From: a bacterium
Lineage (GTDB): Bacteria > UBA8248
NCBI GenBank assembly: GCA_965221165.1
Contig: CBDCRP010000002.1
Location: 480,001 to 544,000, forward strand
Direction of reading: 5' to 3'
DNA: 64,000 nucleotides
Shown in pieces: positions 13,794 to 52,153 of the stretch. Position numbers and translations under genes: made by a program. Position 1 is the first letter of the stretch, and every line of letters begins with the position of its first letter. The notes beneath the pieces are model-generated. The model searched no databases. It had not been told where the DNA came from and saw only the letters and a program-made list of their open reading frames with translations.

Positions 13794-14061
13794 GGGAAAT
13801 AGGGCCGATGCGCAACCGCTTACTTCACCCGAGCGCCCGAGCAATCCAGCGCGTGCCTATCGGGTCGACCACCGAATTTTCTCCCGCGGGAACTATGCAT
13901 TTCCCCGTATCACCATCTGGTCGTGATGGGACGAAATCAACAGGATAAATCCGGATCTTAGAGCGGCGAAATCAGGTCTATAATTTCTGAAAATAAGTGA
14001 AAAATAGTAAAAAATAAGACAAATATCTGAAAAATTCTGAAAATTTATCGCACGCGGGTGG

Positions 14062-14126
14062 TTATCCACATAAATACACAATATTTGGGGATACCGTGTG
14101 GGTAAGTTCATATATTTTGTGGATAT
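14062..14126. promoter_or_regulatory. DnaA-box cluster
   Basis: TTATCCACA perfect (14062-14070); one-mismatch boxes on - strand at 14097-14105 and 14118-14126. Confidence 0.6.
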
Positions 14127-14209
14127 CGATTTTTTTTATATTGACAGAGGGGAACAAAGCATACTACATTTAGTGTTACGAGTTGGTTTCGTCATACTAA
14201 ATATGTCCC
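14076..14209 (+). promoter_or_regulatory. NrdR-box-like operators and sigma70-type promoter of nrdJ
   Basis: ATACTACATTTAGTGT (14161-14176) and ACACAATATTTGGGGA (14076-14091) resemble acaCwAtATaTwGtgt; weaker partners 31-33 bp downstream of each; TTGACA at 14141. Confidence 0.65.
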
Positions 14210-14246
14210 CGACATAGCGGGGCGCCTTTAGCGGAGGAGACAGGGA

Positions 14247-17200
14247 GTGGAGTTTACGAGGCGTTTTACCCGGGCCGGAGATGAGGCGTATAGCGACATT
14301 CGTTTCGCGCCGCGCACCTCACGCATCACCAACCCGGACGGCTCGGTCGTCTTCGAAGCCAAGGATATCATGGCGCCGGAGAACTGGTCCCAGGTGGCCG
14401 TCGACATTCTGGCGCAAAAATACTTCCGAAAAGCTGGCGTTCCCGCGCATTCGAAAAAGATTCACGAAGAAGGAGTGCCCGAGTGGCTGCAGCGCTCGGA
14501 GCCAGACACGGAGAAACTCGAACCCTTGCCCGAAGCCGAGCGATTCGGAAGCGAGCGAGACGCCCGGGACGTTTTCCATCGCATGGCGGGATGCTGGACG
14601 TACTGGGGCTGGAAACACGGTTACTTTCATACAGAGGACAACGCCAAGGCGTTTTATGAGGAGCTTTTATACATACTTGCGAGCCAGATGGCTGCTCCCA
14701 ACTCGCCGCAGTGGTTCAATACGGGCCTGCACTGGGCCTACGGCATTACACGCCCTGCCCAGGGCCACTTCTATTGCGATCCCGAGACGGGGGAAATACT
14801 CCGCTCCGTGAATGCTTACGAGCGTCCCCAGCCACATGCGTGCTTCATACAATCGGTAAAAGATGATCTCGTCAACGAAGGCGGAATCATGGATTTATGG
14901 ACGCGCGAAGCGCGCATCTTCAAGTACGGCTCGGGAACCGGCACGAATTTCTCGAGCCTGAGAGCGGACGGAGAATCGCTATCGGGAGGTGGGAAAAGCT
15001 CCGGCCTCATGAGTTTCCTGAAGATTGGAGACCGCGCCGCGGGCGCCATCAAGTCAGGCGGCACGACGCGCCGGGCGGCGAAAATGGTTACACTCGACAT
15101 AGACCATCCCGACATCGAGGAATTCATCAACTGGAAGGTGAACGAAGAACAGAAAGTGGCCTCTCTGGTATCAGGCAGCAAGATGTGCAGCCGACATATG
15201 AACGCCATTCTCGGGGCTTGCTTGGAGGGGGAGAACCTGGGCTTGAATGGCAACTTTCATCAGCCGGATAAAAATCCATCACTCGCCAAAGCGATACGCG
15301 CCGCAAGGCTCGCCGGTGTTCCGGACAATTACATTCATCGAACCCTTCAACTCGCACGTCAAGACATCACCGAGGTCGAGTTCGAGGAATTCGACACGAA
15401 TTGGGAAGGCGAGGCCTACACTTCAGTGTCCGGGCAAAACTCGAACAATTCCATACGTGTTTCGGATGGATTCATGGAAGCCGTCGAGAAAAACACGGAC
15501 TGGAACCTGATTCGGCGTACCGATGGCGAAATCGCCGCCTCCGTCAATTCAAAAGAACTTTGGGAACAGATTGGATATGCGGCGTGGTGCTGTGCAGACC
15601 CCGGTCTTCAATTCGACACGACTATCAACGACTGGCATACATGCGCCGCCGATGGGCGCATCAATGGTTCCAATCCTTGCTCGGAATACATGTTCTTGGA
15701 TGACACCGCATGCAATCTGGCGTCCATGAACCTCATGAAATTCCTGGATATCGACAAGAATCATTTTCGGGTAGAAGACTATCGCCACGTTATTCGCCTA
15801 TTGACGGTTGTCCTCGAAATTTCAGTGCTTATGGCGCAATTCCCCAGTGAGGAAATAGCCAAACGCTCATATGAGTATCGAACCTTGGGACTTGGATACG
15901 CCAACCTGGGCACCGTGTTGATGGTTCTCGGCATCCCTTACGATTCGCCGGAAGCAGAAGCATGGTGCGGCGCTCTCACTTCCATCATGACGGGTTGCTC
16001 GTATGCCACCAGCGCCGAGATGGCGGGGGAACTGGGAGCTTTCGCAAGGTATCAGGATAATCAAGAACACATGTTGCGCGTTCTGAGAAACCATCGCCGC
16101 GCAGCTTATTCCGTGCCTGAAGCCGAATACGAAATGCTCTCTAAAGCGCCCAAAGGAATCGCTGCGGAAATCTGCCCGCATTACCTTCTTGATGCGGCGC
16201 GCGAAGCGTGGGATGACGCTTTAGCCATTGGCTATCGAAACGGTTACCGGAATGCGCAAACCACCGTTATCGCCCCGACAGGCACCATCGGTTTGGTCAT
16301 GGACTGCGACACAACGGGAATCGAACCGGATTTCGCTCTGGTGAAATTCAAAAAACTGGCCGGAGGCGGTTATTTCAAGATCATCAACCAGTCTGTTCCC
16401 GTTGCTCTGCGGCATATGGGCTATGCCGACGAGGAGGTTCGCGAAATCGTCGCTTACTGCCGAGGGCGAGGCACTCTCACGAATGCGCCTCACATCAATC
16501 CAGAGTCTTTGCACGCGAAAGGATTTACCGGTAAGGCTCTCGAAAAGGTGGAAGCCGCACTAGAAGGGGCATTTGAAATCCAGTTCGCCTTCAACAAATA
16601 CTCCCTCGGTGAAGATTTTTGTCGTGAGGAATTAGACCTCAGTGAAGCGCAGATGGCCGACTGGAATCTGAATCTGCTTGAAGCCATTGGTTTTACCCCA
16701 GAGCAAATAAGCGAAGCGAATGATTTCGTTTGCGGCAAAATGACGCTAGAAGGCGCACCTCACCTAAAAGAAGAACATTTGGCTGTTTTTGATTGTGCAA
16801 GCAAATGCGGGAAAGAAGGCAAGCGCTTCATCAGTCCCATGGCACACGTCCGGATGATGGCGGCGGCGCAGCCCTTCATATCGGGCGCCATCAGCAAGAC
16901 CATCAACATGCCCGCAGAATCCACGATCCAAGATATCTTAAGCATCTACCATGAATCGTGGCAGCGGATGACCAAAGCCATTGCAATTTACCGCGATGGT
17001 TCCAAACTGAGCCAGCCGCTTTCCGCGCAAAGCGAAGCGGAACTCTTCAATGACATCGGTGAAGAAGAAACAACTGCTGACCAAAGCGCTCCGGTTCGCG
17101 TCGCCCAGCAAATTGTGCGCCGGATTATTTACCAATCCAGAAGACGCAAGCTGCCCACCCGCCGTGGTGGCTACACGCAAAAAGCCGTCATCGGCGGACA

Positions 17201-17840
17201 CAAAGTCTATCTTAGAACCGGGGAATATGAAGACGGCTCCATCGGCGAAATTTTTATAGATATGCACAAAGAAGGCGCTGCCTTCAGAAGCCTCATGAAT
17301 TGTTTCGCCATCGCAATTTCGCTGGGTCTTCAGCACGGCGTACCATTGGATGAGTTCGTGGATGCTTTCCTCTTCACGCGTTTCGAGCCGGGCGGTATGG
17401 TCTCGGGCAACCCGCATATCAAGATGAGTACATCTATCATCGATTACATTTTCCGTGAGCTGGCCGTTTCATATCTCGGGCGCCACGACCTTGCACAAGT
17501 CGTGTCAGAAGACCTGAGAAGCGATACTATTGGGCGACCTCAAGAAGAGATTCCGGAGTTCGATACAGAAGAAGAGGAAGAGATTCGAACCATAATCCCA
17601 GGACCGGATGCAAGCGCACCACGCAGTGACCGAGTAAGTTTGAATTATGACAAAGAAACCTCTAGTGCCTCGATGGCACCTCTAACAAAAGCAAGTTCCG
17701 CTCTTGATTCCCGTATCGAAGAAGCCCGCGCTAAAGGATACGAGGGTGAAGCATGTGGTGATTGTGGTTTATTCACCTTGGTGAGAAACGGCACATGCCT
17801 GAAGTGCATGACTTGTGGCGCTACGAGCGGATGTTCTTAA
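14247..17840 (+). CDS. nrdJ: Adenosylcobalamin-dependent (class II) ribonucleotide reductase
   Basis: [23 protein letters not shown] thiyl Cys, [16 protein letters not shown]-terminal TSCPD-like domain with CxxC…CxxC…GCS. Confidence 0.97.
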
Positions 17841-17849
17841 AAATTACTA

Positions 17850-18150
17850 CCCGTCGTGGGGAAAACGGGCGGACTCTGCGACGGGACGAGAGTCGGGGGA
17901 GAATCCTCGGAGGGCTATCCCCCGACTCTCACCAAAATAGGGTTTCAGGAAATTTTCTTGTTGCGGGGGAAACGGGCGGACTCTGCAGCAAGACCGGGGG
18001 CCGGGGATAATACACCTCGGGGGTTGAGTTTCCGGCCCCCACTTAAATTCAATGGTGATTTTCTGCTGCGGGGGAAACGGGCGGACTCTGCGGCAGGCCG
18101 AGAGCCGATGGAGCCTCCTAGTGGGAGTCTTCATCGGCTCTCCCTTTTTC
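17850..18150 (+). ncRNA. Tandem array of three ~105-bp two-hairpin units (candidate structured RNA)
   Basis: Conserved core GGGG(A/G)AAACGGGCGGACTCTGC three times inside different but self-complementary stems; each is followed by a second hairpin; the last ends in a T-run. Confidence 0.6.
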
Positions 18151-18159
18151 GGTAGTGTC

Positions 18160-19035
18160 TCACTTTGAAATCTTCTTCTTGTAAGGGCCACGCGGACCCG
18201 GCTTCGGTTCCCGCGCTTCAATGAGTTCGAGTATCCAGTTCATATCGCGCAATTCAGAATCAAGGCCAGCGGCCATCGCTGGCGTAACCCGCAAACTTTT
18301 GTGGATGCGGCAAAAGTTATAGTGCACGAAATACAACGATAGCATGTGGATATGATTCTCAAGTTTCTTCGAGAAGCCATTCGTTAGACGAGTGAAACGG
18401 CGCATACACATTCTCATGGTGAGGTTTTGTCTTTCAGCGTAGCTGGTGGAGATATGCGCCGGATCGGCCATTCCGGTTACCATCGACATTCGAGTTCCAA
18501 TACATTCAGAAGGGCTGTATCTCCCATCCTTCTCTGATTGACCATATAGCTTCACTAGCATGGCGTAATCAACATCATCCCCAAAGGCATCTTCAACCGC
18601 GTCAAGATATGCCTTGTGGCCGTCTGTGGTCACCTGAACGCGGTTTGCGAGTCTTTCCTTTACATCGGCCATGAACTCATTCGCATAGCCGCTATCACGA
18701 CCGCCTACGAGATAAGAGACAATCAGTTTGCTATCGGCATCTAAAGCCGTCCACGTCCACACGTCACCCGCATCTTCCGGTGCGGCTTCGGCAGTCGCCA
18801 CGTTCTTTTGCTTCGCATAGACAAACGACCATATCTCATCGCACTGGATTCTCTTTGACTTCACATTGCGAACTTGGTGGTCGTGAAATTCTGCGCAAGC
18901 CTCTCCCGCTTTGATGAGCAGTTTCGTCACAGTGTTGATGGACGCGCCCGTTACGCGGGAGATTGCCCGCATGGACATTCCCTCGATAAGAAGGTTGAGT
19001 ATTTGGATTCTTTTATCTGTGTGTAATTTGTTCAT
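18160..19035 (-). CDS. IS1-family DDE transposase (single ORF)
   Basis: HTH (GMSMRAISRVTGASINTV), IQCDEIWSFV, TTDG, ERQNLTMR, RFTRLTNGFSKK; stop codon inside IR. Confidence 0.9.
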   Translation of the reverse strand: MNKLHTDKRIQILNLLIEGMSMRAISRVTGASINTVTKLLIKAGEACAEFHDHQVRNVKSKRIQCDEIWSFVYAKQKNVATAEAAPEDAGDVWTWTALDADSKLIVSYLVGGRDSGYANEFMADVKERLANRVQVTTDGHKAYLDAVEDAFGDDVDYAMLVKLYGQSEKDGRYSPSECIGTRMSMVTGMADPAHISTSYAERQNLTMRMCMRRFTRLTNGFSKKLENHIHMLSLYFVHYNFCRIHKSLRVTPAMAAGLDSELRDMNWILELIEAREPKPGPRGPYKKKISK

Positions 19036-19041
19036 ACATAT

Positions 19042-19070
19042 AATATATGAACTTTATTGCTTAGTGTCAA
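19042..19070 (-). promoter_or_regulatory. Consensus sigma70 promoter of the transposase (probably leaderless mRNA)
   Basis: TTGACA-17bp-TATATT on - strand ending 6 bp before the ATG; no SD. Confidence 0.6.
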
Positions 19071-19080
19071 GTGCAAAGTG

Positions 19081-19344
19081 CTACTCTTTGGAAAAAACTT
19101 CCGAATTAAATGGAGTCAGGTTTTTCCATTTGCGGTCATCGCTTTTTAACCACTCTTCATCATAGTGGTAGACACGACTTTTGTGGTGCCCACATATTAT
19201 TTCTACCGCCGACGAATCGCCTGCTTCTAGCTTTTCTGCATTCTCTTCATCTGTGATGAAATATCCAGTCTCGTTCTCATCTAAAATCACTCCCACGAAA
19301 ACATCATCGAAAGCGCATCTGACGATTACCTTTTCTCCACGCAT
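19081..19344 (-). CDS. Hypothetical IS passenger protein (87 aa)
   Basis: GGAGA RBS, acidic, directly upstream of the transposase. Confidence 0.55.
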   Translation of the reverse strand: MRGEKVIVRCAFDDVFVGVILDENETGYFITDEENAEKLEAGDSSAVEIICGHHKSRVYHYDEEWLKSDDRKWKNLTPFNSEVFSKE

Positions 19345-19516
19345 CTCAAATCTCCATTTGGGCGAGGTTCAAACCTTGCCCATTCTACCAGTGCCACAAA
19401 GTAGATTCAAAAAAAGTCTAATTTTTACGATTTATGGTATTGACTCTATGGCACATACCGTTAATATCTATCAGATGTTAATGGTAATGGCACAACTCTA
19501 ATGTGAGGAATTTAAT

Positions 19517-20212
19517 ATGAGCGACGAAGCCGGATCCAAAACACCCGCCCCGCCATATTTGGCGTTCATTACTTTTCTGGGATTCATAGAGTCGATGGCG
19601 ACCATTGGTCTCCCGCATCAGATCGACAAGAGCATCATGAAAAATATGTCTGGCGCAAATCAAAATTGGACGCTTAGTTGCCTGAAATATCTCAAACTGA
19701 CCTCAGAAGGAAATAGGCCTACAGATAAATTCAAACAACTCGTTTCGGTGGATGGCGAAAACAGAAAAGAACTGATGAAGGATATCATAATCAACGCATA
19801 TCCTTTCATATTCAGCGCAGAAGGATTTGATATTAAGACCGCTACGGAAAAACTACTTAATGAGCAATTTGACAGTACAGGGGTGGTAGGCGATACGAAA
19901 AAAAAATCTGTCAGATTCTTCATGAATGCGGTGAAGCATGTAGGTATAGAAATTTCGCCTTATCTGGATCAAATGAAACTCCGAGCCAGGACACCCACAA
20001 AAAACAAAAAAACAAAACGTCCTCTAGGAACCAATGGAAATAACAAGACGAAAGATAAAGAGCCACAAGAGCCGCCAGAAAAGGAGAAAGACACATCCTC
20101 CGACAGTAATTTCAATCAATCTCTCCTAGACAAGATTCCTCCGTTCAATCCTGAATGGACTGAGGAAACTTTGATTAAGTGGCTGGATACAATTAGCAAA
20201 CTGAAAGGGTAA
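19517..20212 (+). CDS. DUF5343-like IS passenger protein
   Basis: PPY…P..ID…LKYLKL..GNRPT N-terminal pattern typical of DUF5343; GAGGA RBS; TTGACT-16-TAATAT promoter at 19440-19467. Confidence 0.6.
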   Translation: MSDEAGSKTPAPPYLAFITFLGFIESMATIGLPHQIDKSIMKNMSGANQNWTLSCLKYLKLTSEGNRPTDKFKQLVSVDGENRKELMKDIIINAYPFIFSAEGFDIKTATEKLLNEQFDSTGVVGDTKKKSVRFFMNAVKHVGIEISPYLDQMKLRARTPTKNKKTKRPLGTNGNNKTKDKEPQEPPEKEKDTSSDSNFNQSLLDKIPPFNPEWTEETLIKWLDTISKLKG

Positions 20213-20217
20213 AAACA

Positions 20218-20246
20218 CCCCCTGATGGAGGTAAGCCATCAGGGGG
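20218..20246. terminator. Strong 11-bp hairpin between the DUF5343-like gene and the tRNA-like genes
   Basis: CCCCCTGATGG-aggtaag-CCATCAGGGGG; T-run follows on the - strand. Confidence 0.6.
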
Positions 20247-20255
20247 GGATGAAAC

Positions 20256-20331
20256 GGCCCCGTCGCCAAGTGGTTAAGGCGCGCCTCTGGCAAGAGCGTA
20301 TACGCCGGTTCGATTCCGGTCGGGGCCTCCA
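20256..20331 (+). tRNA. Irregular tRNA: Cys-like body, GGC (Ala) anticodon
   Basis: 76-nt cloverleaf: acceptor GGCCCCG/CGGGGCC, U73, CCA; D-arm GCCAAGTGGTTAAGGC; loop CT-GGC-AA; C30-A40 mismatch. Confidence 0.75.
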
Positions 20332-20344
20332 AATGAGATTGAGT

Positions 20345-20417
20345 GGGGGGTGTGGATGGTTCCCAGGTCAGGACTTAGGCCCCCGTCCTTGGGGTTCGAT
20401 TCCCCAACCCTCCACCA
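20345..20417 (+). ncRNA. tRNA-like RNA with alanyl acceptor (G3:U70, A73) and aberrant D/anticodon arms
   Basis: Acceptor GGGGGGT/ACCCTCC-ACCA; T-arm TGGGG-TTCGATT-CCCCA; mini D-arm GGA-TGGT-TCC; AGGAC/GTCCT arm with 10-nt loop. Confidence 0.65.
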
Positions 20418-20423
20418 ATCTCA

Positions 20424-20648
20424 TTACTTCGATGTTCCTTTGTTCCACCGCGAATTTGCGGCTTTTTGTGCAATCTCTTTTCGTCTTTCAGGTGATAGCT
20501 TTTCTGCGCGGGCACGTCCGCCCGATCTGCCAAGTATCTGCCCAGCGGTCTGAGTCTCCACAACTTCACCCACCGCAATCTTGGCTACATTGACTGCGCA
20601 CCCTACCACATCACCGGGTCTTTTCTGTCCTTGTGGGCCAGTAGCCAT
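20424..20648 (-). CDS. Small basic protein typical of IS1-like cargo elements
   Basis: GQKRPGDV…GGRARAEKLSPERRKEIAQKAANSRW motif; next to the right IR. Confidence 0.75.
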   Translation of the reverse strand: MATGPQGQKRPGDVVGCAVNVAKIAVGEVVETQTAGQILGRSGGRARAEKLSPERRKEIAQKAANSRWNKGTSK

Positions 20649-20775
20649 GTCGAAAATTCCTTTTATGCAATGACGACTATTATCGTCACACGACGATTAT
20701 TGTTGCAACCCCTTTCGAAGTCAAGGGAAAATGGAGGGCGATAAATTTCAAAGTGAGACACTACCCCTTTTTCAC

Positions 20776-20804
20776 TTGACACCCGATGCTCCTTCACCTA
20801 CCTT
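20776..20804 (+). promoter_or_regulatory. Promoter of tRNA-Ala
   Basis: TTGACA-17bp-TACCTT upstream of the tRNA. Confidence 0.6.
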
Positions 20805-20818
20805 CAAGTTCCTTTTGT

Positions 20819-20894
20819 GGGGGTGTAGCTCAGATGGGAGAGCGCGTGGATCGCACCCACGAGGTCAGGGGTTCGAATCCCCTCACCTCCACCA
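20819..20894 (+). tRNA. tRNA-Ala(CGC)
   Basis: Canonical cloverleaf, G3:U70, anticodon loop AT-CGC-AC, TTCGAAT, ACCA end. Confidence 0.95.
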
Positions 20895-35445: not shown

Positions 35446-37542
35446 TCATCGTTTAAGCCGCATGATGATGTTGTCGAACGCATCCCTGGCGACGGCGAAA
35501 TCGGGGGGAACCAGTATGGTGGCGTCGAACTCCTGGAGGATGAACGGCCCTTTTTTCATGGATTCATCGAGCATGGAGCGGTTGATGAGTTTCGCAGCGG
35601 CCCAGCCCATCTCGGCGCCGAAGTAGGCTTGCCGCTCGCCCGTCCTGGTTTTCAGGATTTCAGGGAACTGGAGCGATTCCGGGAAGCGCGGCGTATCGGA
35701 AACGCCCGTGGCGACCAGGTGGAGGTTCACCAGTTCCACGAGTCCGTCGCCTCCCCGGTGGCCGTAGGTGCGCTCGTGTTCATCTTCAAAGGCCGCGGAG
35801 GCTTGCGCGAGCGCATCGCCTGGCGAGCCGTTCTCGGGCCATGGAATCGACAGCTCGTGCGTTTGCCCGTAGTAGCGGAGTTCACCGCGCCTGCGGAGGC
35901 GGCATTTCTCGCCTGGGTATCCCTCTTTAGAGAGCAAATCGCGCGCTTCGGCCTCAAGGCGCTCCCAACGGGCTTCGACCGACCCGGGGTCGAGTTCGTC
36001 GGTTCTTCCCAAAAGGGTTTGGGTGAAGTGGTGCTCCAGGTCGGAATAAAGCAGCCCGAAGGCGGAGAAAATACCCGAAGAGGGGGGGATGACCACCTGG
36101 GGAAGTTCCAATTCTCTCGCGACGGAGGCTGCGAACAGCCCCCCGTTTCCGCCGAAGGCGAACAGGCTGAAATCCCGAGGGTCCTTCCCTCGCTCGGTGG
36201 AGACTGAACGAATCGCCCGCGTCATGTTCGAGGTCGCGATTTGAGTGACGCCGTATGCGAGCGTCGTGATGTCGAGACCCAAAGACGTCGCCACCTTCTC
36301 GCCCAGGGCAAGCTCGGCGGCGGATGAATCGAGCTTCACCGAACCGCCCGCGATGCCTTCTGGGTCGAGATAGCCAAGCAGCAGACAGCTGTCGGTCAGG
36401 GTGGGTTCCACGCCCCCGAGTCCATAGCATGCGGGACCCGGATTCGCGCCCGCGCTCTTGGGTCCCACCTGCAGAGCGCCTCCCTTGTCAATCCATACGA
36501 TGCTGCCGCCGCCCGCTCCGATCTCCGCGATATCGAGCGTGGGAGCGCGCAGGAGATAGCCCCCGCCGCGCGCGAGGCGATTCAACTGGGAGAATCCGCC
36601 GCCGACCTCGTATTCGGGGGAGAAGGTCGTCTCGCCGTTTTCGATGAGGCTCGCCTTGGCCGTGGTGCCTCCGATATCCATGGTGATGGCGTTGTTCACG
36701 TTAATGCGCCTGGCGAGGTGATGCGCCGCGACGACTCCTGCGGCGGGTCCTGATTCGATGATGTGGATGGGCTGCGCCCGCGCCACCTCGGCGGTCATTA
36801 TTCCGCCGTTGGACTGCATGATCAAGAGCGGAGCCGTGAACTCCCGTGCGCGCAGGCCCGCTTCGAGCGATTCGAGATATTGCTTGACGACGGGCATCAC
36901 GAAAGCGTTGATGACAGTCGTGCTGGTGCGTTCGTACTCCCTCATTTCTGGGAGGATGTCCGAAGAGATAGAGACGTCGACCCCGGGATTTTCAGAACGG
37001 ATGATGTCGAGCACGGTGCGCTCATGCTCTGGATTTGCATAGGAATTCAAAAGACAGACTGCGATGGATTCGACGCCCTGGCGGGTGAGTTCGGCGGTGG
37101 CGCTTCGGGCCGATTCCACATCCAGAGCTTCGAGTACTTCACCCGTATGGCTCATTCGCTCACGCACTTCCGCGCGGAGGAACCGCTCCACCAAAGGGGG
37201 AGGTTTCGCCCAACCCAGATCATACTGGGTGGGGATACGTATCCGCCTTAGTTCGAGGACGTCCCGGAAGCCCCGGGTGGTGATGAGGCCGGTCAGCGCG
37301 CCTTCGCGCTCGATGATGGCGTTGGTGGCCACGGTGGTTCCATGGTCCACCTCGGTGCAGTTTCCGGCGGATAAATGGTTCTCCTGCAGCAGATTTTCAA
37401 GCGTTTCCAGGATGCCGCGCTCATAGGCGTCCGTTGTGGAGATCGCCTTCGCCGTGTGAACGCATCCCTGCTCGTCGATGAGAACGATGTCGGTGAACGT
37501 ACCTCCGATGTCCACCCCGATTCGAAAAGATTGTCCGTTCAT
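35446..37542 (-). CDS. Hydantoinase A/5-oxoprolinase family subunit
   Basis: GVDIGGTFTD, HGTTVATNA, ESGPAAGV, DIGGTTAK, IGAGGGS, FGGNG. Confidence 0.93.
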   Translation of the reverse strand: MNGQSFRIGVDIGGTFTDIVLIDEQGCVHTAKAISTTDAYERGILETLENLLQENHLSAGNCTEVDHGTTVATNAIIEREGALTGLITTRGFRDVLELRRIRIPTQYDLGWAKPPPLVERFLRAEVRERMSHTGEVLEALDVESARSATAELTRQGVESIAVCLLNSYANPEHERTVLDIIRSENPGVDVSISSDILPEMREYERTSTTVINAFVMPVVKQYLESLEAGLRAREFTAPLLIMQSNGGIMTAEVARAQPIHIIESGPAAGVVAAHHLARRINVNNAITMDIGGTTAKASLIENGETTFSPEYEVGGGFSQLNRLARGGGYLLRAPTLDIAEIGAGGGSIVWIDKGGALQVGPKSAGANPGPACYGLGGVEPTLTDSCLLLGYLDPEGIAGGSVKLDSSAAELALGEKVATSLGLDITTLAYGVTQIATSNMTRAIRSVSTERGKDPRDFSLFAFGGNGGLFAASVARELELPQVVIPPSSGIFSAFGLLYSDLEHHFTQTLLGRTDELDPGSVEARWERLEAEARDLLSKEGYPGEKCRLRRRGELRYYGQTHELSIPWPENGSPGDALAQASAAFEDEHERTYGHRGGDGLVELVNLHLVATGVSDTPRFPESLQFPEILKTRTGERQAYFGAEMGWAAAKLINRSMLDESMKKGPFILQEFDATILVPPDFAVARDAFDNIIMRLKR

Positions 37543-37649
37543 GATCTCGATTTCTGAAGGCGGAAGCGCCCGGGAATGGCGTCCCACCGTGGTGTTATGA
37601 TAGCTTCCCGCTCTACTTTGATATTGAACCATCTTGGCACGGAGAACGC

Positions 37650-39368
37650 ATGCTTGAAAAGCGTCTGGACCCTGTGACGACATCCGTCGTGGAACGCGGA
37701 TTGTTCAGCGTGGCCGATGAAATGGCCGCCGTCATCGTTCGTACGGCCTATTCCCCCCTGGTCCGCGACCTGCTCGATTTCACCGTCGCGCTTTGCAACC
37801 CGCGAGGGGAGATGGTGGTTCAGGGCGTGGGAATGGCGATTCACCTAGGCGCATTGCCGACCGCTGTGGCCGCCATGCTCAAACAGTTCGAGGGAAACCT
37901 CCGCCCGGGCGACGCCCTCATCATGAACGACCCCTACGAGGGCGGTATGCACCTGCCCAACATCGTGCTCGTCACGCCGATATTCTGCGCCGATGAATTG
38001 ATGGGGCATGCGGTCGCCATGGCCCACATGACGGACGTCGGCGGCCACGTGCCGGGGAGCGTTCCGGTGAACAGCCGGGAGGTTTTCGCCGAGGGTCTCA
38101 GGATCCCGCCCCTTTTGCTGGAGCGAGACGGGAGACGCGATCAGACGCTGATGGCCTTGATCGAGAAAAATTCCCGGCTTCCGAGAGATTTTTTCGGCGA
38201 CTTGGAAGCCCAGCTCACGGCCTGCCGCCTGGGGGAGAGGCGTTTCTCCGCCCTGGCGCGGCGCTACGGCAACGAGGTGATGCGGGCCGCCATGGCGGGC
38301 TTGCTCGACCGAAGCGAGAAGATGGCGCGCGCGGAAATTGCCGCGATGCCCGATGGCGTCTATTCTTTTGAGGATTGGCTCGATAACGACGGCATGGATG
38401 GCGGGCCGCAGCGCCTCTTCGTTACCGTCACGATAGACGGGGATGATTTGACCGCCGATTTCACGGGTACGGATTTACAGGCCCCCACCGCCATCAACTC
38501 TCCTCTCGCATATTCGCGCTCGGCGTTCTATCTCGCGGTGCGCTCCATCATGAATCAGGAAATTCCCAACACGGCGGGTTTTTTCCGCCCGCTTCGGCTC
38601 GTGGCGCCGGAGGGAACGCTCGTTCACCCCAGCTTCCCGGCGGCCGTGGGCGCGATGGGCGTGGTGGGCTACCGGGTGGCGGATTGCGTTTTCGGCGCCC
38701 TGGGCCAGGCGGCGCCGCACCTTGTGCGGGCGGCGAGCGAGGGCGGCACCACGCGCTATACGGTGGGCGCTACGAAAAACGGCGCGCCCAGCATCCTCAG
38801 CGAGGCGCTCGTCGGCGCTTGGGGCGGTCATCCTCACATGGACGGCATCGACGGCGTGGCGAACGTGGCCGCCAACATGGCGAACTCGCCCGTCGAGATG
38901 GTGGAGAGCACCTATCCGGTATTGGTGGAGGAATACGCCTATGAGCCCGACTCGGAGGGTGCGGGTAAGTTTCGGGGCGGTCTGGGCGTGCGTCGAAAGA
39001 TTCGCATTCTCGCGCCCGAGGGTGGAGTGCTCCAGGTTCGATCAGGCAGGGCCGATCACGCGCCGTGGGGGCTTCATGGCGGCCACGACGGCACCATCTG
39101 CCAGAATGTTCTCGACCCCGACACCCCGAACGAGCAGCGTCTCAAGGGAAACGAAACGATTCACGTACCCGAAGGAACGGTGTATGTCCACGTCACTCCC
39201 GGAGCGGGAGGACACGGCCCGCCGCAGGAGCGTGAACCGGCTCTGGTGGCTCTCGACGTGCGGGACGGGAAAATCTCCGTCCGGCGCGCGCGGGAGGTCT
39301 ACAGGGTCGCGGTCGATGAAGCGGGTGCGCTCGATGAAGCCTCGACGATGAAACTGCGCGGCGAATGA
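37650..39368 (+). CDS. Hydantoinase B/5-oxoprolinase family subunit
   Basis: RTAYSP, NDPYEGGMHLPN, HMTDVGG, EGLRIPP, GAGKFRGG. Confidence 0.93.
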   Translation: MLEKRLDPVTTSVVERGLFSVADEMAAVIVRTAYSPLVRDLLDFTVALCNPRGEMVVQGVGMAIHLGALPTAVAAMLKQFEGNLRPGDALIMNDPYEGGMHLPNIVLVTPIFCADELMGHAVAMAHMTDVGGHVPGSVPVNSREVFAEGLRIPPLLLERDGRRDQTLMALIEKNSRLPRDFFGDLEAQLTACRLGERRFSALARRYGNEVMRAAMAGLLDRSEKMARAEIAAMPDGVYSFEDWLDNDGMDGGPQRLFVTVTIDGDDLTADFTGTDLQAPTAINSPLAYSRSAFYLAVRSIMNQEIPNTAGFFRPLRLVAPEGTLVHPSFPAAVGAMGVVGYRVADCVFGALGQAAPHLVRAASEGGTTRYTVGATKNGAPSILSEALVGAWGGHPHMDGIDGVANVAANMANSPVEMVESTYPVLVEEYAYEPDSEGAGKFRGGLGVRRKIRILAPEGGVLQVRSGRADHAPWGLHGGHDGTICQNVLDPDTPNEQRLKGNETIHVPEGTVYVHVTPGAGGHGPPQEREPALVALDVRDGKISVRRAREVYRVAVDEAGALDEASTMKLRGE

Positions 39369-39378
39369 AGGCGCGCGG

Positions 39379-41511
39379 CTAGCATCGTCGTTTCGTCCGG
39401 CTCGTTTTCTTGCGCGTCATAACGAATCTGCCCAGAGAATCCACCTCCACGCGAAACGAGGGCGGGATGAGCACCGTGGAATCGGGTTGCTCGATGACCG
39501 CCGGGCCTTGAACCCGGTTTCCGCCTTTCAGAAGCTCTCGTTCATAGATGGGGCAGTCGATGAAATTTCCGGCCTCCTGGAAATGCACCCCCCGCTCGCC
39601 CTTGAGCGCCGCCTTGGGACTGTTGGGACCTGAGGCGATTTTTTTCGGGCGAATGCGGTCCGTGAGGCCGATGGCCGAGACGCGAAGGGTCACGGCCTGC
39701 ACGCTTTCCGCCTCATCGCAATAGCTGTACTGGCGCAGATGCGCGTCGTGAAAAGCCCGCCGCGCCTTGCCGAGCCACGCGGGGCCTATCTTTCCGCCGG
39801 GCAGCGGCACGTTGATCTCATAGTTTTGAAGCGGGTAGCGCAGGTCGGCCGAGCGCACGAGCATGCGCTTCGTCCGGGGCGCCTTTTCGCCTTTGAGCCA
39901 TTCGTCCGCCTCCGCTTCAAGCTCGGCCATGAGCGCGGCGATTCGCTCCGCGTTCTCCCCATCGAGGCTCAGCCGGGTGGTGGCCGTAAAGTCCGCTCTC
40001 ATGTCCGCCCAGAGCAGGCCGAGTGCAGAGAAAACGCCCGGCGCCTCGGGGATGATGATGCGCGGAATGCCGAGTTCGTTCGCCAAGTCGGCCGCGTGCA
40101 GGGGGCCCGCGCCGCCAAAGCTGATGAGCGCGAAATCACGCGGGTCATAGCCTCTGGCGACCGAGACCACGCGAAGCGTGCGAACCATATGGGCGTTCAC
40201 GACCTCGATAATTCCTGCGGCAGCTTCCATGGTGGAGAGCCCGAGTGGTTCGGCTATCTTCTCTTCGATGGCCTTTTCCGCGTACTCGAGATGGAGGCGT
40301 GATTCTCCTCCGACGAAATAATCCGGGTTCAGGCGGCCCAGGACGAGGTTCGCGTCCGTGACGGTGGGTTCCTCGCCCCCCCGGCCGTAGCAGACCGGGC
40401 CTGGTTCCGAACCCGCGCTGTGGGGGCCGACTTTCAGAACGCCCACGCCGTCCACCGAAGCGATGGAGCCGCCGCCCGCGCCGCATTCGGTCAGGTCGAT
40501 GACGGGCGTCTTGACGGGATATCCCGTAAAACGGACCGCCAGGGACTGGTGCATGCCCATCCCGATTTCGTATTCGGTGGTGGTCTTGTAGGCGCCGCCC
40601 TCAATCAGGCTCGTCTTGGCGGTGGTGCCGCCCATGTCGAAGGAGATGATGTCGGGTTCTTCGATCTCCCGCGCGAGGACGGTGGCGGCGATGACGCCCG
40701 CCGCGGGGCCTGATTCGATGAGCGTGTGGGGGCGTTCGCGCGCAGATGCGGGCGACATCAACCCGCCGGCGGAGTTCATGATGAGGAGCTTTTCGGGGCG
40801 GTGGCCGAGCTGGGATACCTCATCGTGCAGCCTTTCCGTGTAGCGCGCGAATATGGGTTTCAGGTAGCCGACGAGCGCGGCCGTGCTGGTTCGCTCGAAT
40901 TCGCGAAACTCGGGCGTGATGTCCGAGGAGGCCACGATGTGGCGGCCCGGAAGCGCGCGAAAGAGATGTTCTTTCACCCGAAGCTCGTGGGCGGGATTCA
41001 CATAGGAGAACAAAAGCGCGATCACCACCGATTCGGCGCCCGAGGCATCGAGCGCATCCGCGAGGCGGTCGAGTTCCGCTCTCGTCAGTTTGGTGACGAC
41101 GTCTCCGTTCCACCCCAGTCGCTCGTTCACCTCGAAGCTGAGCCGCCGGGGGATGAGGGGCTTGGCCTTCACCTCCTGCAAGTTATACAGACTCGGCCTG
41201 CGCTGGCGGGCGATCTCGAGAATGTCCCGAAACCCTTGGGTGGTGACCAGGGCGGTGCGTGCGCCCTTTGATTCCAAAACGGTGTTGGTGGCCACCGTAG
41301 TGGCGTGGAGGATGCGTCCCACCTCCTCAGGCGATATGCCTCGCGTCGCCCTCTGGAGTCCGTTGACGAAACAGCCCTCCAGATTTACCGGCGTGGTATC
41401 CACCTTGTAGGAGGCGATGAGCCCCTCTTGCTCTCCCATGAGGACGACGTCGGTGAACGTGCCGCCGATGTCGATGCCGACGCGGTATTTTTCTTCCTTT
41501 CTCGAGGCCAT
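39379..41511 (-). CDS. Hydantoinase A/5-oxoprolinase family subunit (second)
   Basis: GIDIGGTFTD, ESGPAAGV, DMGGTTAK, FGGAGPLHA. Confidence 0.93.
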   Translation of the reverse strand: MASRKEEKYRVGIDIGGTFTDVVLMGEQEGLIASYKVDTTPVNLEGCFVNGLQRATRGISPEEVGRILHATTVATNTVLESKGARTALVTTQGFRDILEIARQRRPSLYNLQEVKAKPLIPRRLSFEVNERLGWNGDVVTKLTRAELDRLADALDASGAESVVIALLFSYVNPAHELRVKEHLFRALPGRHIVASSDITPEFREFERTSTAALVGYLKPIFARYTERLHDEVSQLGHRPEKLLIMNSAGGLMSPASARERPHTLIESGPAAGVIAATVLAREIEEPDIISFDMGGTTAKTSLIEGGAYKTTTEYEIGMGMHQSLAVRFTGYPVKTPVIDLTECGAGGGSIASVDGVGVLKVGPHSAGSEPGPVCYGRGGEEPTVTDANLVLGRLNPDYFVGGESRLHLEYAEKAIEEKIAEPLGLSTMEAAAGIIEVVNAHMVRTLRVVSVARGYDPRDFALISFGGAGPLHAADLANELGIPRIIIPEAPGVFSALGLLWADMRADFTATTRLSLDGENAERIAALMAELEAEADEWLKGEKAPRTKRMLVRSADLRYPLQNYEINVPLPGGKIGPAWLGKARRAFHDAHLRQYSYCDEAESVQAVTLRVSAIGLTDRIRPKKIASGPNSPKAALKGERGVHFQEAGNFIDCPIYERELLKGGNRVQGPAVIEQPDSTVLIPPSFRVEVDSLGRFVMTRKKTSRTKRRC

Positions 41512-41513
41512 GG

Positions 41514-43298
41514 CTAGAGGGCCTCCTTGCGTTTCAGCGCTTCATCGACCAGGGCTGCCGGGTAGGACGCCCTGGCGTATTCGAGCGAAATTTTTCCGTC
41601 CGCGAGATCGATCGCCAATTCCTCCGGTGAATGCTCGGCCGGCTCGCCGTATCCACCGGCCCCGGCCGACTGGCACCTAAGCACCTCGCCCTCTCGCACA
41701 TCGTGGGGACCGCCCTTGCTCGGCAGCTTCGTTTCGTTCGCCTCCCCGGGATTTTTCAGATGAATTCCCAGGGCCCCCTCTTTCCCGCCGAAAAGGGGCC
41801 AGGGGGAAAAATCGTGCCGGTCGGCGTGGGCGATGAAGCCCGTGTCGCTGAGCATCCGGAAATCCTTGCGCGTGGCGAGTCCGCCCCGGCGGCGTCCCGC
41901 GCCGCCGCTGTCGGGCACGAGTTCGAAGCGCTCCACCCGGATGGGGTATTCACTCTCTAAAATCTCGACCGGCAGGTTCGGTATGTTGTTGGTGTGAATC
42001 TGGACGGCGTCCATGCCACTGCTCGTCTCGCGACCCCCCATGCCGCCGCCGATGCCGTCGATGCAGATGAAAGGCCTTTGCCGGATGGTATCGAAACCGT
42101 GGAGGTTGATGGAGGTGGTGCCGTGGCCGCAGGCGCACACGCGCTCGGGCGCCACCTTGGACATGACGCCGATGAGCAGGTCGGCCAGCCGCTGGCAGGT
42201 GGTGCCGCGCCCGCCCACGGGCGCGGGCGGGTTCGGGTTCACGATGCTCTCCTCGGGTGCAACAAGCCTCACCACGCGCTCGAAAGCCGCGTTCGACCAG
42301 AGTTCGGGGTCGATGGTCGCTTTGAGCGCGTAGGCGACGGTGGCGAACAACGCTTCGTAGACGACGTTTACGCCGCCCGTTCTTTGGTGGCTCGAACCCG
42401 TGAAGTCGAAAACCATGTGGGGCTCGGGGCGATGCGAGATGGTGAGCGTCACCTTCAGGGGAACCGGGCCAGGGACGTGGGCGTCGTCGTCGAGTTGATC
42501 CTCGAAATCCCATGTTCCTTCGGGCAGTTCCCTGATTTTCGAGCGAATCGTTCGCTCGTTGTAGTCGAGCACGCCCTCCACGAGTTCGAGAAAACGCTCG
42601 GCCCCGTATTTCTCGCTGAGTTCCTGGAGACGCCGGACGCCGAGCTGGTTGCACGCGGCCTGCGCGCGGAGGTCGGCCGGCCTGTCTTCTGAAAAGCGCA
42701 TGTTGAGGAGGATGAAGGAGAAGAGGTCTTCTTGCAGTTCGCCTTCTTTGAAGATTTTCATGGGCGGTATCCTCAAGCCCTCCTGGTATATCTCGTTGCA
42801 GCCCTCGGTCATCGCGGCGCCCGGCTTGATGCCGCCCACGTCGGGCCAGTGGCCCATGTTGGCGACGAAGCCGATGAGTCGTTTACCCTCGAACACCGGA
42901 GAGGCCACCGTGACGTCGGCGAGGTGGGTTCCGCCGCCGTGATAGGCGTCGTTCGCCAGAAAAGCGTCGCCGGGTTTGAGTTCCTCGAGCGGGTAGCGCT
43001 TCAAAATGTTGCGGATGATGCTCAGCATCGCGCCCAAATGCATGGGGATGTGCTCGGCCTGGGCGATGAGGCGGCCTTCGGCGTCGAATATGGCCGTCGA
43101 GGCGTCCTGGCGCTCCTTGATGTTCGTGGAATAGGCCGTGCGAATGAGCGCCGCGCCCATCTCCTCGGCCACCGAGAGCAGGGCGTTCGAGAATACCTCG
43201 AGCGCGACCGGATCGGGCACCGAGGAAGCGCGCCGCTTCATGGGTTTGCGGCGCGAGGCCGCTTTTTTCGAGATCGCTTTCAAACGTCCGGCTGGCAT
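41514..43298 (-). CDS. Hydantoinase B/5-oxoprolinase family subunit (second)
   Basis: RTAYSTNIKERQD, HIPMHLG, NDAYHGGGTHLAD, EGLRIPP; start uncertain. Confidence 0.92.
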   Translation of the reverse strand: MPAGRLKAISKKAASRRKPMKRRASSVPDPVALEVFSNALLSVAEEMGAALIRTAYSTNIKERQDASTAIFDAEGRLIAQAEHIPMHLGAMLSIIRNILKRYPLEELKPGDAFLANDAYHGGGTHLADVTVASPVFEGKRLIGFVANMGHWPDVGGIKPGAAMTEGCNEIYQEGLRIPPMKIFKEGELQEDLFSFILLNMRFSEDRPADLRAQAACNQLGVRRLQELSEKYGAERFLELVEGVLDYNERTIRSKIRELPEGTWDFEDQLDDDAHVPGPVPLKVTLTISHRPEPHMVFDFTGSSHQRTGGVNVVYEALFATVAYALKATIDPELWSNAAFERVVRLVAPEESIVNPNPPAPVGGRGTTCQRLADLLIGVMSKVAPERVCACGHGTTSINLHGFDTIRQRPFICIDGIGGGMGGRETSSGMDAVQIHTNNIPNLPVEILESEYPIRVERFELVPDSGGAGRRRGGLATRKDFRMLSDTGFIAHADRHDFSPWPLFGGKEGALGIHLKNPGEANETKLPSKGGPHDVREGEVLRCQSAGAGGYGEPAEHSPEELAIDLADGKISLEYARASYPAALVDEALKRKEAL

Positions 43299-51572: not shown

Positions 51573-51830
51573 ATGAAGCGAAGCACCGAGAGAATACTCA
51601 CGACCCACACGGAGAGCCTGCCGCGTCCCCAGGAGGTGGTCGATTTGTTGCCGGCCTAGGAGGAAGGCGGCGCGCGTTCTGCTGATCTCGATGCCGCCGT
51701 GGCGCGCGCGATAGAAGACGTCGTGGAGAAACAGGCGGGGGGGGGTCGACGTCATCAACGACGGTGAGCAGGGTCAGCCCGATTACACCACCCACGTCAA
51801 GGACAGGCTGACGGGATACGAGGGGAGAAC
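51573..51830 (+). pseudogene. Cobalamin-independent methionine synthase II-family remnant
   Basis: MKRSTERILTTHTESLPRP then stop/frameshifts; DVINDGEQG…KDRLTGYEG. Confidence 0.75.
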
Positions 51831-51892
51831 CGGTTTGTGGTCGAACTCGCGATGGAGGCCCTGGACCGCAGGAAATACCCCCGTACGGAAAT

Positions 51893-52126
51893 TGGAGTCC
51901 AGTTCCCGCGCTCGTCCTCTCCCGCGAAGAGGTCCCGCGTGAGCCTCCCTCCCTGCCACCTCGTAGCCATCGACGCCGACGAAGCGGGCGCTGGCCGAGG
52001 CGGCGGGGCACGCTGTCCTCGGTCAGCATGCACCTCATTGCCAGCCGCTGGGCCGGTAGCCCTGCTCCTTCACCTGCTCCCAGACCGCCGTCTGGCGGCC
52101 GTGGTCGGTGGTCCCTAAATGAACGT
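51893..52126 (-). pseudogene. Fragment of plasmid/ICE-type ParB-like protein
   Basis: DHGRQTAVWE…LTEDSVP…ARFVGVDGYEVAG..GRLTRDLF spread across frames with stops. Confidence 0.5.
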
Positions 52127-52153
52127 TGCGGGGTGCGGCAGCATGAACTCAAA

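Follow-up and report, generated by a model that had tools for sequence, protein, structure and literature searches.

What is the series of hairpins that follows the nrdJ gene in this bacterial DNA, and on which of its properties does selection act? Within the window, by which we mean the whole 64 kb stretch of DNA analysed here, three two-hairpin units occupy positions 17850-18150, between the nrdJ stop codon and a T-run (Table 1). On its far side, the stretch containing this array adjoins the stop of a minus-strand IS1-like transposase gene. The unit cores, GGGG[AG]AAACGGGCGGACTCTGC, start at 17858, 17965 and 18070 on the plus strand with a spacing of 107 and 105 nt, in agreement with a sequence-only reading of the locus that had described three units of about 105 bp. 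Three exact copies of the 17-mer AAACGGGCGGACTCTGC exist in the window, all of them in the array. When up to three mismatches were allowed, four matches were found against 0.48 expected, a number reached by none of 100 shuffles; the fourth match (51768-51784) is part of an ORF on the minus strand (51598-52152) and is not enclosed in a hairpin.

The architecture proposed in the sequence-only reading was recovered throughout. All three of its outer stems for hairpin A were found (CCCGTCG/CGACGGG, TCTTGTTGC/GCAGCAAGA and CTGCTGC/GCGGCAG, the last with one U.G pair), as was a hairpin B with CCT..GG in its apex 2-3 nt after each hairpin A, and the last unit does close in a T-run, CCTTTTTC. One refinement concerns the core. 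GGGG pairs with CUCU (G.U, G-C, G.U, G-C), and thus the true loop of hairpin A comprises 12 nt, RAAACGGGCGGA. In each unit, the lower stem of hairpin B spans 13 bp beneath a CCU..RGG apex.

Table 1 Features of the hairpin array and its surroundings, in window coordinates
Feature	Position	Strand	Description
nrdJ	14247..17840	+	Class II B12-dependent ribonucleotide reductase, 1197 aa; Pfam Ribonuc_red_lgC 3.1e-126, Ribonuc_red_2_N 7.5e-43, TSCPD
Unit 1 hairpin A	17850..17885	+	Outer stem 17850-17857/17878-17885; R2 covariance model 63.1 bits
Unit 1 hairpin A, inner parts	GGGG 17858-17861 / CUCU 17874-17877; loop 17862-17873	+	12-nt loop AAAACGGGCGGA
Unit 1 hairpin B	17888..17930	+	13-bp lower stem, CCU/RGG apex; inverted repeat I1, fold, covariation
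AU-rich spacer 1	17931..17955	+	Composition kept, sequence not
Unit 2 hairpin A	17956..17993	+	Loop GAAACGGGCGGA 17969-17980; R2 63.3 bits
Unit 2 hairpin B	17996..18040	+	Inverted repeat I4, fold; 97.9% of cells paired in ortholog-only pair counts
AU-rich spacer 2	18041..18061	+	
Unit 3 hairpin A	18062..18097	+	Loop GAAACGGGCGGA 18074-18085; R2 63.0 bits
Unit 3 hairpin B and T-run	18100..18150	+	Hairpin 18100-18142 (inverted repeat I2), T-run CCTTTTTC 18143-18150; predicted intrinsic terminator of the nrdJ transcript
IS1-family-like insertion	18151..20765		Perfect 21-nt terminal inverted repeats 18151-18171 and 20745-20765; not part of the RNA
DDE_Tnp_IS1 transposase	18160-19035	-	Pfam
Promoter-like site	20776-20804	+	TTGACA-N17-TACCTT
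tRNA-Ala(CGC)	20819-20894	+	

Relatives of the array were sought in 185,579 species-representative genomes using a scan in which the loop was fixed and the inner stem free to covary, a design that misses variant loops. The scan returned 40 loci, 20 of which are the same syntenic locus, present once in each of 20 genomes. Four of these genomes are labelled Nitrospinota or Nitrospinaceae and the remainder are labelled 'bacterium'; the amino acid identity of their nrdJ orthologs ranges from 72.8 to 96.2%. A single layout is common to all 20 relatives, consisting of nrdJ, one to four units, a promoter-like site and tRNA-Ala(CGC), and together with the window they contribute 56 units. Hairpin A begins 7-18 nt past the nrdJ stop codon in 21 of 21 genomes (the window and the 20 relatives). 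Each of the remaining 20 loci is an isolated match in an unrelated taxon, has no hairpins and reaches no more than 27.2 bits with the unit model; these loci resemble chance matches, of which we estimate about 35 for a 35-bit pattern in 1.2e12 bases.

Downstream of the array, the promoter-like site and tRNA-Ala(CGC) follow directly in the relatives. The tRNA was detected in 12 of the 12 loci scanned with Rfam or ARAGORN; its 5' end was matched by pattern in 19 of 20 loci, and in the twentieth (L009) the tRNA was found by ARAGORN. In the window, the IS1-like insertion parts the array from the tRNA-Ala promoter. This insertion is absent here in 20 of 20 related loci, and CCTTTTTC is found on both of its sides. 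Genes beyond the tRNA differ between genomes, unlike the linkage to nrdJ.

Building a covariance model from the units, a check put forward in the sequence-only reading, separated the family cleanly, with all 56 units scoring 73.8-104.1 bits and the next-best match, at 38.8 bits, being the opposite strand of the palindromic hairpin B. Further copies were not found in the 64 kb window, where a hairpin-A-only model (R2, filters off) scored the three known copies at 63 bits, the best match outside the array having 14.5 bits. A blastn comparison of the array with plasmid and phage collections gave no match, and a plasmid or phage origin was set aside.

The array shares several traits with the REP/BIME and BOX repeats in that it is built from stable imperfect palindromes that follow one another in tandem between two genes, next to the 3' end of one of them. 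Repeats of that kind are dispersed, number tens to hundreds of copies and keep the sequence of their stems. Here, by contrast, each genome holds one syntenic locus, with no extra copy in 64 kb of the window, and in place of the sequence-conserved palindromic arms expected of REP-type repeats we found outer stems that differ through compensatory changes and an invariant loop. A dispersed repeat of the REP/BIME/MITE type was rejected on these grounds, as the sequence-only reading had anticipated.

Copy number and composition vary between the arrays. The module measures about 85 nt and is present in one to four tandem copies, which sort into three orthologous types: first, middle and last. Duplication of the middle unit has given four units in one genome (L006), and another (L012) carries a single hybrid unit that combines the hairpin A of a first unit with the hairpin B of a last unit. 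Two arrays (L007 and L017) have kept the middle hairpin B and lost its hairpin A, and four (L013, L019, L023 and L027) consist of two full units with no remnant of the middle one. This variable copy number, together with the hybrid, duplicated and partial units, implies that the module is the unit of function and that one module is enough.

Conservation within the module was compared with that of sites expected to drift. The genomes are widely diverged: four-fold degenerate sites of nrdJ, nearly saturated in the most distant members, match the window at an identity of 0.36-0.77 and each other at a mean pairwise identity of 0.575; the spacer between units 1 and 2 has a mean pairwise identity of 0.57 (18 genomes). 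Against this background, identity amounts to 0.97-0.99 in the inner stem and loop of hairpin A and to 0.85-0.92 in the stems (outer stems about 0.88, hairpin B lower stem 0.85-0.92), part of this conservation coming from shared descent since all 21 genomes fall within one clade. Positions 1-2 of the 12-nt loop vary (GA, AA, GC, CA, GU). Its last ten bases, AACGGGCGGA, are invariant in 56 of 56 units, an invariance that is partly built in for 20 of them because every genome had to show the exact loop in one unit or more to be retrieved. The remaining 36 units (33 in relatives and three in the window) were free to differ and none does; likewise, no divergent loop came to light in the covariance model search.

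Sequence conservation extends beyond the loop. Each G.U pair of the inner stem is kept in 46 of 47 distinct alignment rows, and the apex of hairpin B is also conserved in sequence (C61-G71 in 47/47 rows, C62-G70 in 46/47). A conserved ACC(A) tail follows hairpin B of unit 1, and ACC starts this tail in 19 of the 21 first units. The 35 spacers, 13-39 nt in length, have a mean GC content of 0.33 compared with 0.66 for the units. By these comparisons of sequence, the spacers between modules drift neutrally with their AU-rich composition retained.

Covariation was assessed on a MAFFT alignment of the 56 units, comprising 47 distinct rows. Standard pairs form in 90.9% of alignment cells, compared with 84.1% for shuffled columns and 46.5-54.5% for slid partners. 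Changes on both sides were observed in 19 of 31 pairs, against 11.0 in shuffles, and affect both hairpins (6/12 pairs in A and 12/16 in B). On four of five covariation measures none of 500 shuffles reached the observed value; for the fifth, further pair types, 23 of 500 did so. Hairpin A is paired in 98.4% of cells. The unpaired cells of hairpin B derive mainly from middle-type units, whose 5' arm sits one column off register in the MAFFT alignment and which are 97.9% paired in their own register. Covariation persists among orthologs alone, with 10 double-change pairs in first units, 12 in last units and seven in middle units.

The strand on which the fold is selected can be read from the wobble pairs. 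G.U cells number 242 and A.C cells 23 (150 against 23 with the invariant inner stem excluded), an excess which indicates that the selected strand is the one transcribed with nrdJ. Folding points the same way: a 320-nt stretch reaches -160.3 kcal/mol on the plus strand (z = -6.85, with 0 of 100 shuffles as good) compared with -120.5 kcal/mol on the minus strand. The earlier proposal that selection acts on an RNA fold of the plus strand is hence supported by the covariation, the ratio of G.U to A.C cells, the invariant loop and the 20 related genomes. We conclude, from comparative sequence evidence, that the array is a conserved and modular structured RNA, read from the plus strand and tied to the 3' end of nrdJ, in one clade of Nitrospinota-type bacteria. 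As such it constitutes a well-supported candidate for an undescribed regulatory RNA.

The possibility that this RNA belongs to a known family was rejected, there being no Rfam family near threshold. At Rfam 15 gathering thresholds, two tRNAs and nothing else passed in the whole window, and in the 12 related loci examined the tRNA alone passed. With E values up to 10, positions 17700-18300 gave chance-level matches to miRNAs or frameshift sites, scoring 9-20 bits against thresholds of 40-128. The sequence-only reading, which did not recognise the element as a known motif and had called for an Rfam check, stands in this respect. No description of the element was found in open-access full text, a body of literature that leaves most subscription journals outside its coverage, and the same corpus yielded no described regulatory RNA for Nitrospinota. 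The mention of nrdJ in PMC1242208 concerns the order of genes around yfr6 in Prochlorococcus and has no relation to the element.

Several other identities were considered and set aside. An in-frame open stretch of 104 codons after the nrdJ stop covers the array in the window; in 17 of 20 relatives it ends within the array after 1-76 codons (after 32 in L032, the closest of them), and in L012, L023 and L027, whose arrays are short, it continues beyond the array. With a frame that relatives do not preserve, and with units spaced at distances not divisible by three, a coding extension of nrdJ or a small ORF was rejected. A ToxI-like RNA array of a type III toxin-antitoxin system does not fit units of about 105 nt followed by tRNA-Ala(CGC), rather than a toxin gene, in 12 of 12 loci. 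Nor does the location fit a riboswitch in a 5' leader, with the array placed after a stop codon and the downstream tRNA having its own promoter-like site. An anti-terminator in which hairpin A contributes its 3' strand and hairpin B its 5' strand would, judged by eye, comprise 4 to 6 bp, with an A.C mismatch where column 46 is C; like the two resemblances that follow, it was dropped as too weak or not conserved. Hairpin B with its ACCA was also viewed as a tRNA-like structure; position 3:70 is G-C, there is no alanine identity pair and no tRNA was called. Finally, a likeness of CGAGAG..CCGG to the sarcin-ricin loop was dismissed by eye, these bases here forming the base of a regular helix.

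How, then, might the array be expressed? A scan of positions 17600-18400 for sigma-70-like consensus sites, which does not cover other sigma factors, found no promoter-like site on either strand. A terminator-like site at 18123-18142 on the plus strand coincides with the last hairpin and is followed by CCTTTTTCGG; of all the units, the last alone is trailed by a T-run. Across the 21 genomes, at least five T follow the last hairpin in 12 (the window and 11 of 20 relatives), four T in one and three or fewer in eight. The eight genomes with at most three T imply that hairpin B is maintained even where it is a poor terminator.

We tentatively favour a reading in which the array is a structured nrdJ 3'UTR built of autonomous modules, in which a trans-acting partner, most likely a protein, would recognise the invariant loop together with the G.U-containing inner stem. 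RNA polymerase is predicted to transcribe the array together with nrdJ, whose transcription probably tracks the demand of the cell for DNA precursors, and the last hairpin B with its T-run is predicted to act as the intrinsic terminator of this transcript. Every module would then fold independently and offer its loop and inner stem to the partner, for which a sequence-specific RNA-binding protein is the most likely identity. The array as a whole would form a multivalent binding platform whose abundance follows nrdJ expression, either titrating the factor or recruiting it to set the fate of the 3' end of the nrdJ mRNA. Hairpin B may hold each module together and stop exonucleases that act from the 3' end; cleavage in the AU-rich linkers may yield single modules. 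A protein is favoured as the partner because antisense pairing would have no need of the sequence conservation seen in the inner stem and the hairpin B apex; as a counterpoint, the invariant single-stranded 10-mer also looks like a base-pairing seed. Among the predicted ORFs of the window that were scanned (50 in one scan and seven in another), none matched an RNA-binding protein family.

Protein sponges of the CsrB/RsmZ type are among the closest known systems; in these, many hairpins carry the same loop motif and act multivalently, the A(N)GGA sites are of the hexaloop type and transcription starts from a regulated promoter of the RNA's own. In the array, each hairpin A loop contains one GGA (in GCGGAC), and another GGA lies in the hairpin B apex of unit 1. 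The loop and its flanks nevertheless do not look like the A(N)GGA hexaloop consensus, with 12 nt, ten conserved bases and the GGA at the 3' edge of the loop, and no promoter-like site is seen. Rfam scans of the array reported none of the CsrB, RsmY and RsmZ families.

Nitrospinota are widespread marine nitrite oxidisers. For bacteria of this type, the array represents a candidate regulatory RNA that is strictly linked to the gene of a DNA-precursor enzyme and tolerates one to four copies. If its partner is a protein, it would be a sponge or recruitment platform inside a 3'UTR, with a dose that follows nrdJ expression; if the partner is an RNA, the nrdJ regulon would be extended post-transcriptionally. 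The invariant 10-mer with the G.U stem provides a ready bait for pull-down, and the covariance models allow the family to be mapped in genomes and metatranscriptomes. The protein sponge and the processed sRNA family, both offered as examples when the array was first noticed, remain the two leading readings of the sequence.

The latter is the main rival of the favoured reading and, in our view, possible though doubtful. It holds that base-pairing sRNAs derive from this 3'UTR, which would be cleaved in the AU-rich linkers to give siblings of about 85-90 nt. The loop AACGGGCGGA would serve as a seed for C-rich sites in target mRNAs or in another sRNA, and the targets would be regulated in step with nrdJ. 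The placement of the most conserved bases, single-stranded and in a loop, is in keeping with such a role, as are the AU-rich, neutrally drifting linkers that part the modules and the position downstream of a stop codon, with no promoter-like site of the array's own and a terminator (predicted from sequence) common with the mRNA. However, the sequence of the inner stem, including its two G.U pairs, is as invariant as the loop, and a seed does not need that. The U-tail, moreover, is present on the last unit only. Nor did a search for partners of the loop point to a target. The final 2.7 kb of the nrdJ coding sequence contains no conserved complement, its best column reaching -11 kcal/mol in 86% of genomes, and in the window the 5' region of nrdJ pairs with the loop no more strongly than -11 kcal/mol. 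A pairing between the loop and nrdJ was rejected as a consequence. In the 57% GC window, 175 sites pair at -15.5 kcal/mol or better, showing that complementarity alone is not specific.

Two groups of known sRNAs bear on this comparison. The LhrC genes of Listeria monocytogenes are adjacent to one another. As described in PMC5880928, LhrC1-5 are homologous units of about 100 nt with a conserved motif in the loop of a 5' hairpin (loop A, which pairs with targets) and a 3' terminator-type hairpin, an architecture that the array recalls. A conserved single-stranded motif in the loop of the first hairpin is found in both. The LhrC loops, however, are CU-rich and pair with Shine-Dalgarno regions, whereas the array loop is G-rich and its adjacent stem is sequence-invariant as well. 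The LhrC genes are induced via LisR (PMC5880928), while the array, lying 7-18 nt past a stop codon, shows no promoter-like site; its units do not have the appearance of separate genes, given zero promoter-like sites and a T-run that is not repeated from unit to unit. The cyanobacterial Yfr1, Yfr2 and Yfr10, as described in PMC6778093, are phylum-level RNAs, several per genome, with a short near-invariant motif in a single-stranded region or loop, divergent surroundings, and loop motifs mediating sRNA-mRNA and sRNA-sRNA pairing; in these respects they too lend some support to a base-pairing function. They differ in being independent, scattered genes with unrelated motifs, whereas the array is a tandem in the 3'UTR of one gene.

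An unlikely alternative to any trans-acting partner is that of a passive 3' end, at which the hairpins would terminate nrdJ transcription, shield the mRNA from 3' exonucleases and insulate the tRNA-Ala promoter from read-through. Such a barrier needs stems and not a frozen loop, and the identity of 97-99% in loop and inner stem, compared with about 57% in spacers and four-fold sites, argues against it, as does the retention of the hairpins despite weak termination signals (at least five T in 12/21 genomes and at most three in 8/21). What speaks for this alternative is the location of the array, which in all 21 genomes lies after the nrdJ stop and ahead of the tRNA promoter, the great stability of the hairpins, the terminator-like site at the last of them and the flexible number of units (one to four).

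Invariant unpaired nucleotides within covarying stems, combined with tandem modules, are also known from ligand-binding RNAs. The array displays both features, and the module might by analogy be a sensor of a small molecule, such as a deoxynucleotide or cobalamin, or a binder of the small ribosomal subunit, altering either what becomes of the 3' end of the mRNA or how far transcription reads through into the tRNA. We consider this improbable: the array occupies a 3'UTR behind a stop codon rather than a 5' leader, and the two hairpins, both very stable, face no plausible competing pairing. In favour of contact with the small subunit, positions 1399-1406 of 16S rRNA from E. coli (rrsH) form a perfect complement to the loop bases ACGGGCGG. 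The match is nevertheless an ordinary one: among 500 shuffled loops, 52 bind 16S or 23S rRNA equally well, and 686 of 5000 have a perfect 8-mer complement, all calculated with the rRNA of E. coli and not that of this organism. A specific form of this idea, to which we attach very little probability, has ACGGGCGG acting as antisense to the decoding-site strand of 16S rRNA, such that modules released from the nrdJ transcript would attach to 30S subunits that are immature or idle and make a second contact through the SD/anti-SD-like apex of hairpin B. If true, ribosome availability would be coupled to DNA precursor supply by a new, multivalent and ribosome-directed 3'UTR regulator.

Lastly, a role at the level of DNA, with the 22-bp cores as protein-binding sites upstream of the tRNA-Ala promoter or as a site for single-strand recombination or a mobile element, appears hardly credible, since the spacing of the cores (103-108 bp, about ten helical turns, in most arrays), their position upstream of a promoter-like site and the IS element inserted beside the array in the window are opposed by compensatory stem changes and the 242 to 23 preference for G.U over A.C, which are properties of a single strand and not of a duplex, by the single syntenic locus per genome with no further copy in 64 kb, by the lack of a plasmid or phage match and by the absence of that IS element from all 20 relatives.

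The T-run that directly follows the last hairpin of the array was found to be interrupted by an IS1-family-like element, the insertion point of which falls exactly within this run, between the array and the promoter-like site preceding tRNA-Ala(CGC). The element is flanked on either side by CCTTTTTC, consistent with an 8-bp target duplication as judged from the sequence. Since the element is missing at all of the related loci (20 of 20), we conclude that the insertion is recent.

Coordinates (window) of the insertion, its cargo and further genes and reading frames.
Feature	Position	Strand	Remarks
99-codon ORF	17856-18155		nrdJ frame, directly past nrdJ TAA stop; spans whole array
IS1-family-like element	18151-20765		2,615 bp; bounded by the repeats in the next row
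Terminal inverted repeats	18151-18171 / 20745-20765		21 nt, perfect
Transposase gene	18160-19035	-	in the element
DUF5343 ORF	19517-20212		in the element
tRNA-Ala(GGC) gene	20256-20331		in the element
tRNA-like element	20345-20417		in IS-bounded segment, directly past tRNA-Ala(GGC)
Hydantoinase/oxoprolinase A + B genes, pair 1	35446-37683 with 37650-39368
Hydantoinase/oxoprolinase A + B genes, pair 2	39379-41511 with 41514-43298

The tRNA-like element of the cargo possesses an acceptor-type stem of 7 bp, the T-arm GGGGTTCGATTCCCC and a terminal 3' ACCA, and is without a normal D arm or anticodon arm. It was not called by ARAGORN, and its Rfam matches were all sub-threshold (tmRNA, 15.6 bits; mascRNA, 19.1 bits).

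Beyond tRNA-Ala(CGC), the loci of seven relatives (L002, L006, L012, L013, L019, L023 and L027) were compared in array orientation from position ~3400 on, with gene identities taken from reading of ORF translations. The genes immediately after the tRNA vary among these relatives, and a small ORF that is conserved, along with an aldehyde-oxidase-like gene, marks the return of synteny past the variable stretch. This variation in gene content suggests that tRNA-Ala(CGC) marks the edge of DNA that is variable or integrated.

A coding role for the 99-codon ORF was rejected: the frame is conserved in none of the relatives and is an artefact of the G+C-rich hairpins, which are poor in stops. On the 5' side of nrdJ, positions 14060-14215 are AT-rich and contain short palindromic boxes (e.g. 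~14076-14100 and 14163-14215), which we take to be similar to NrdR operator boxes; a hairpin lies immediately 5' of the GGAGGAG ribosome-binding site. Elsewhere in the window, the two pairs of genes for hydantoinase/oxoprolinase subunits A and B stand side by side (35446-43298) in what looks like a local duplication.
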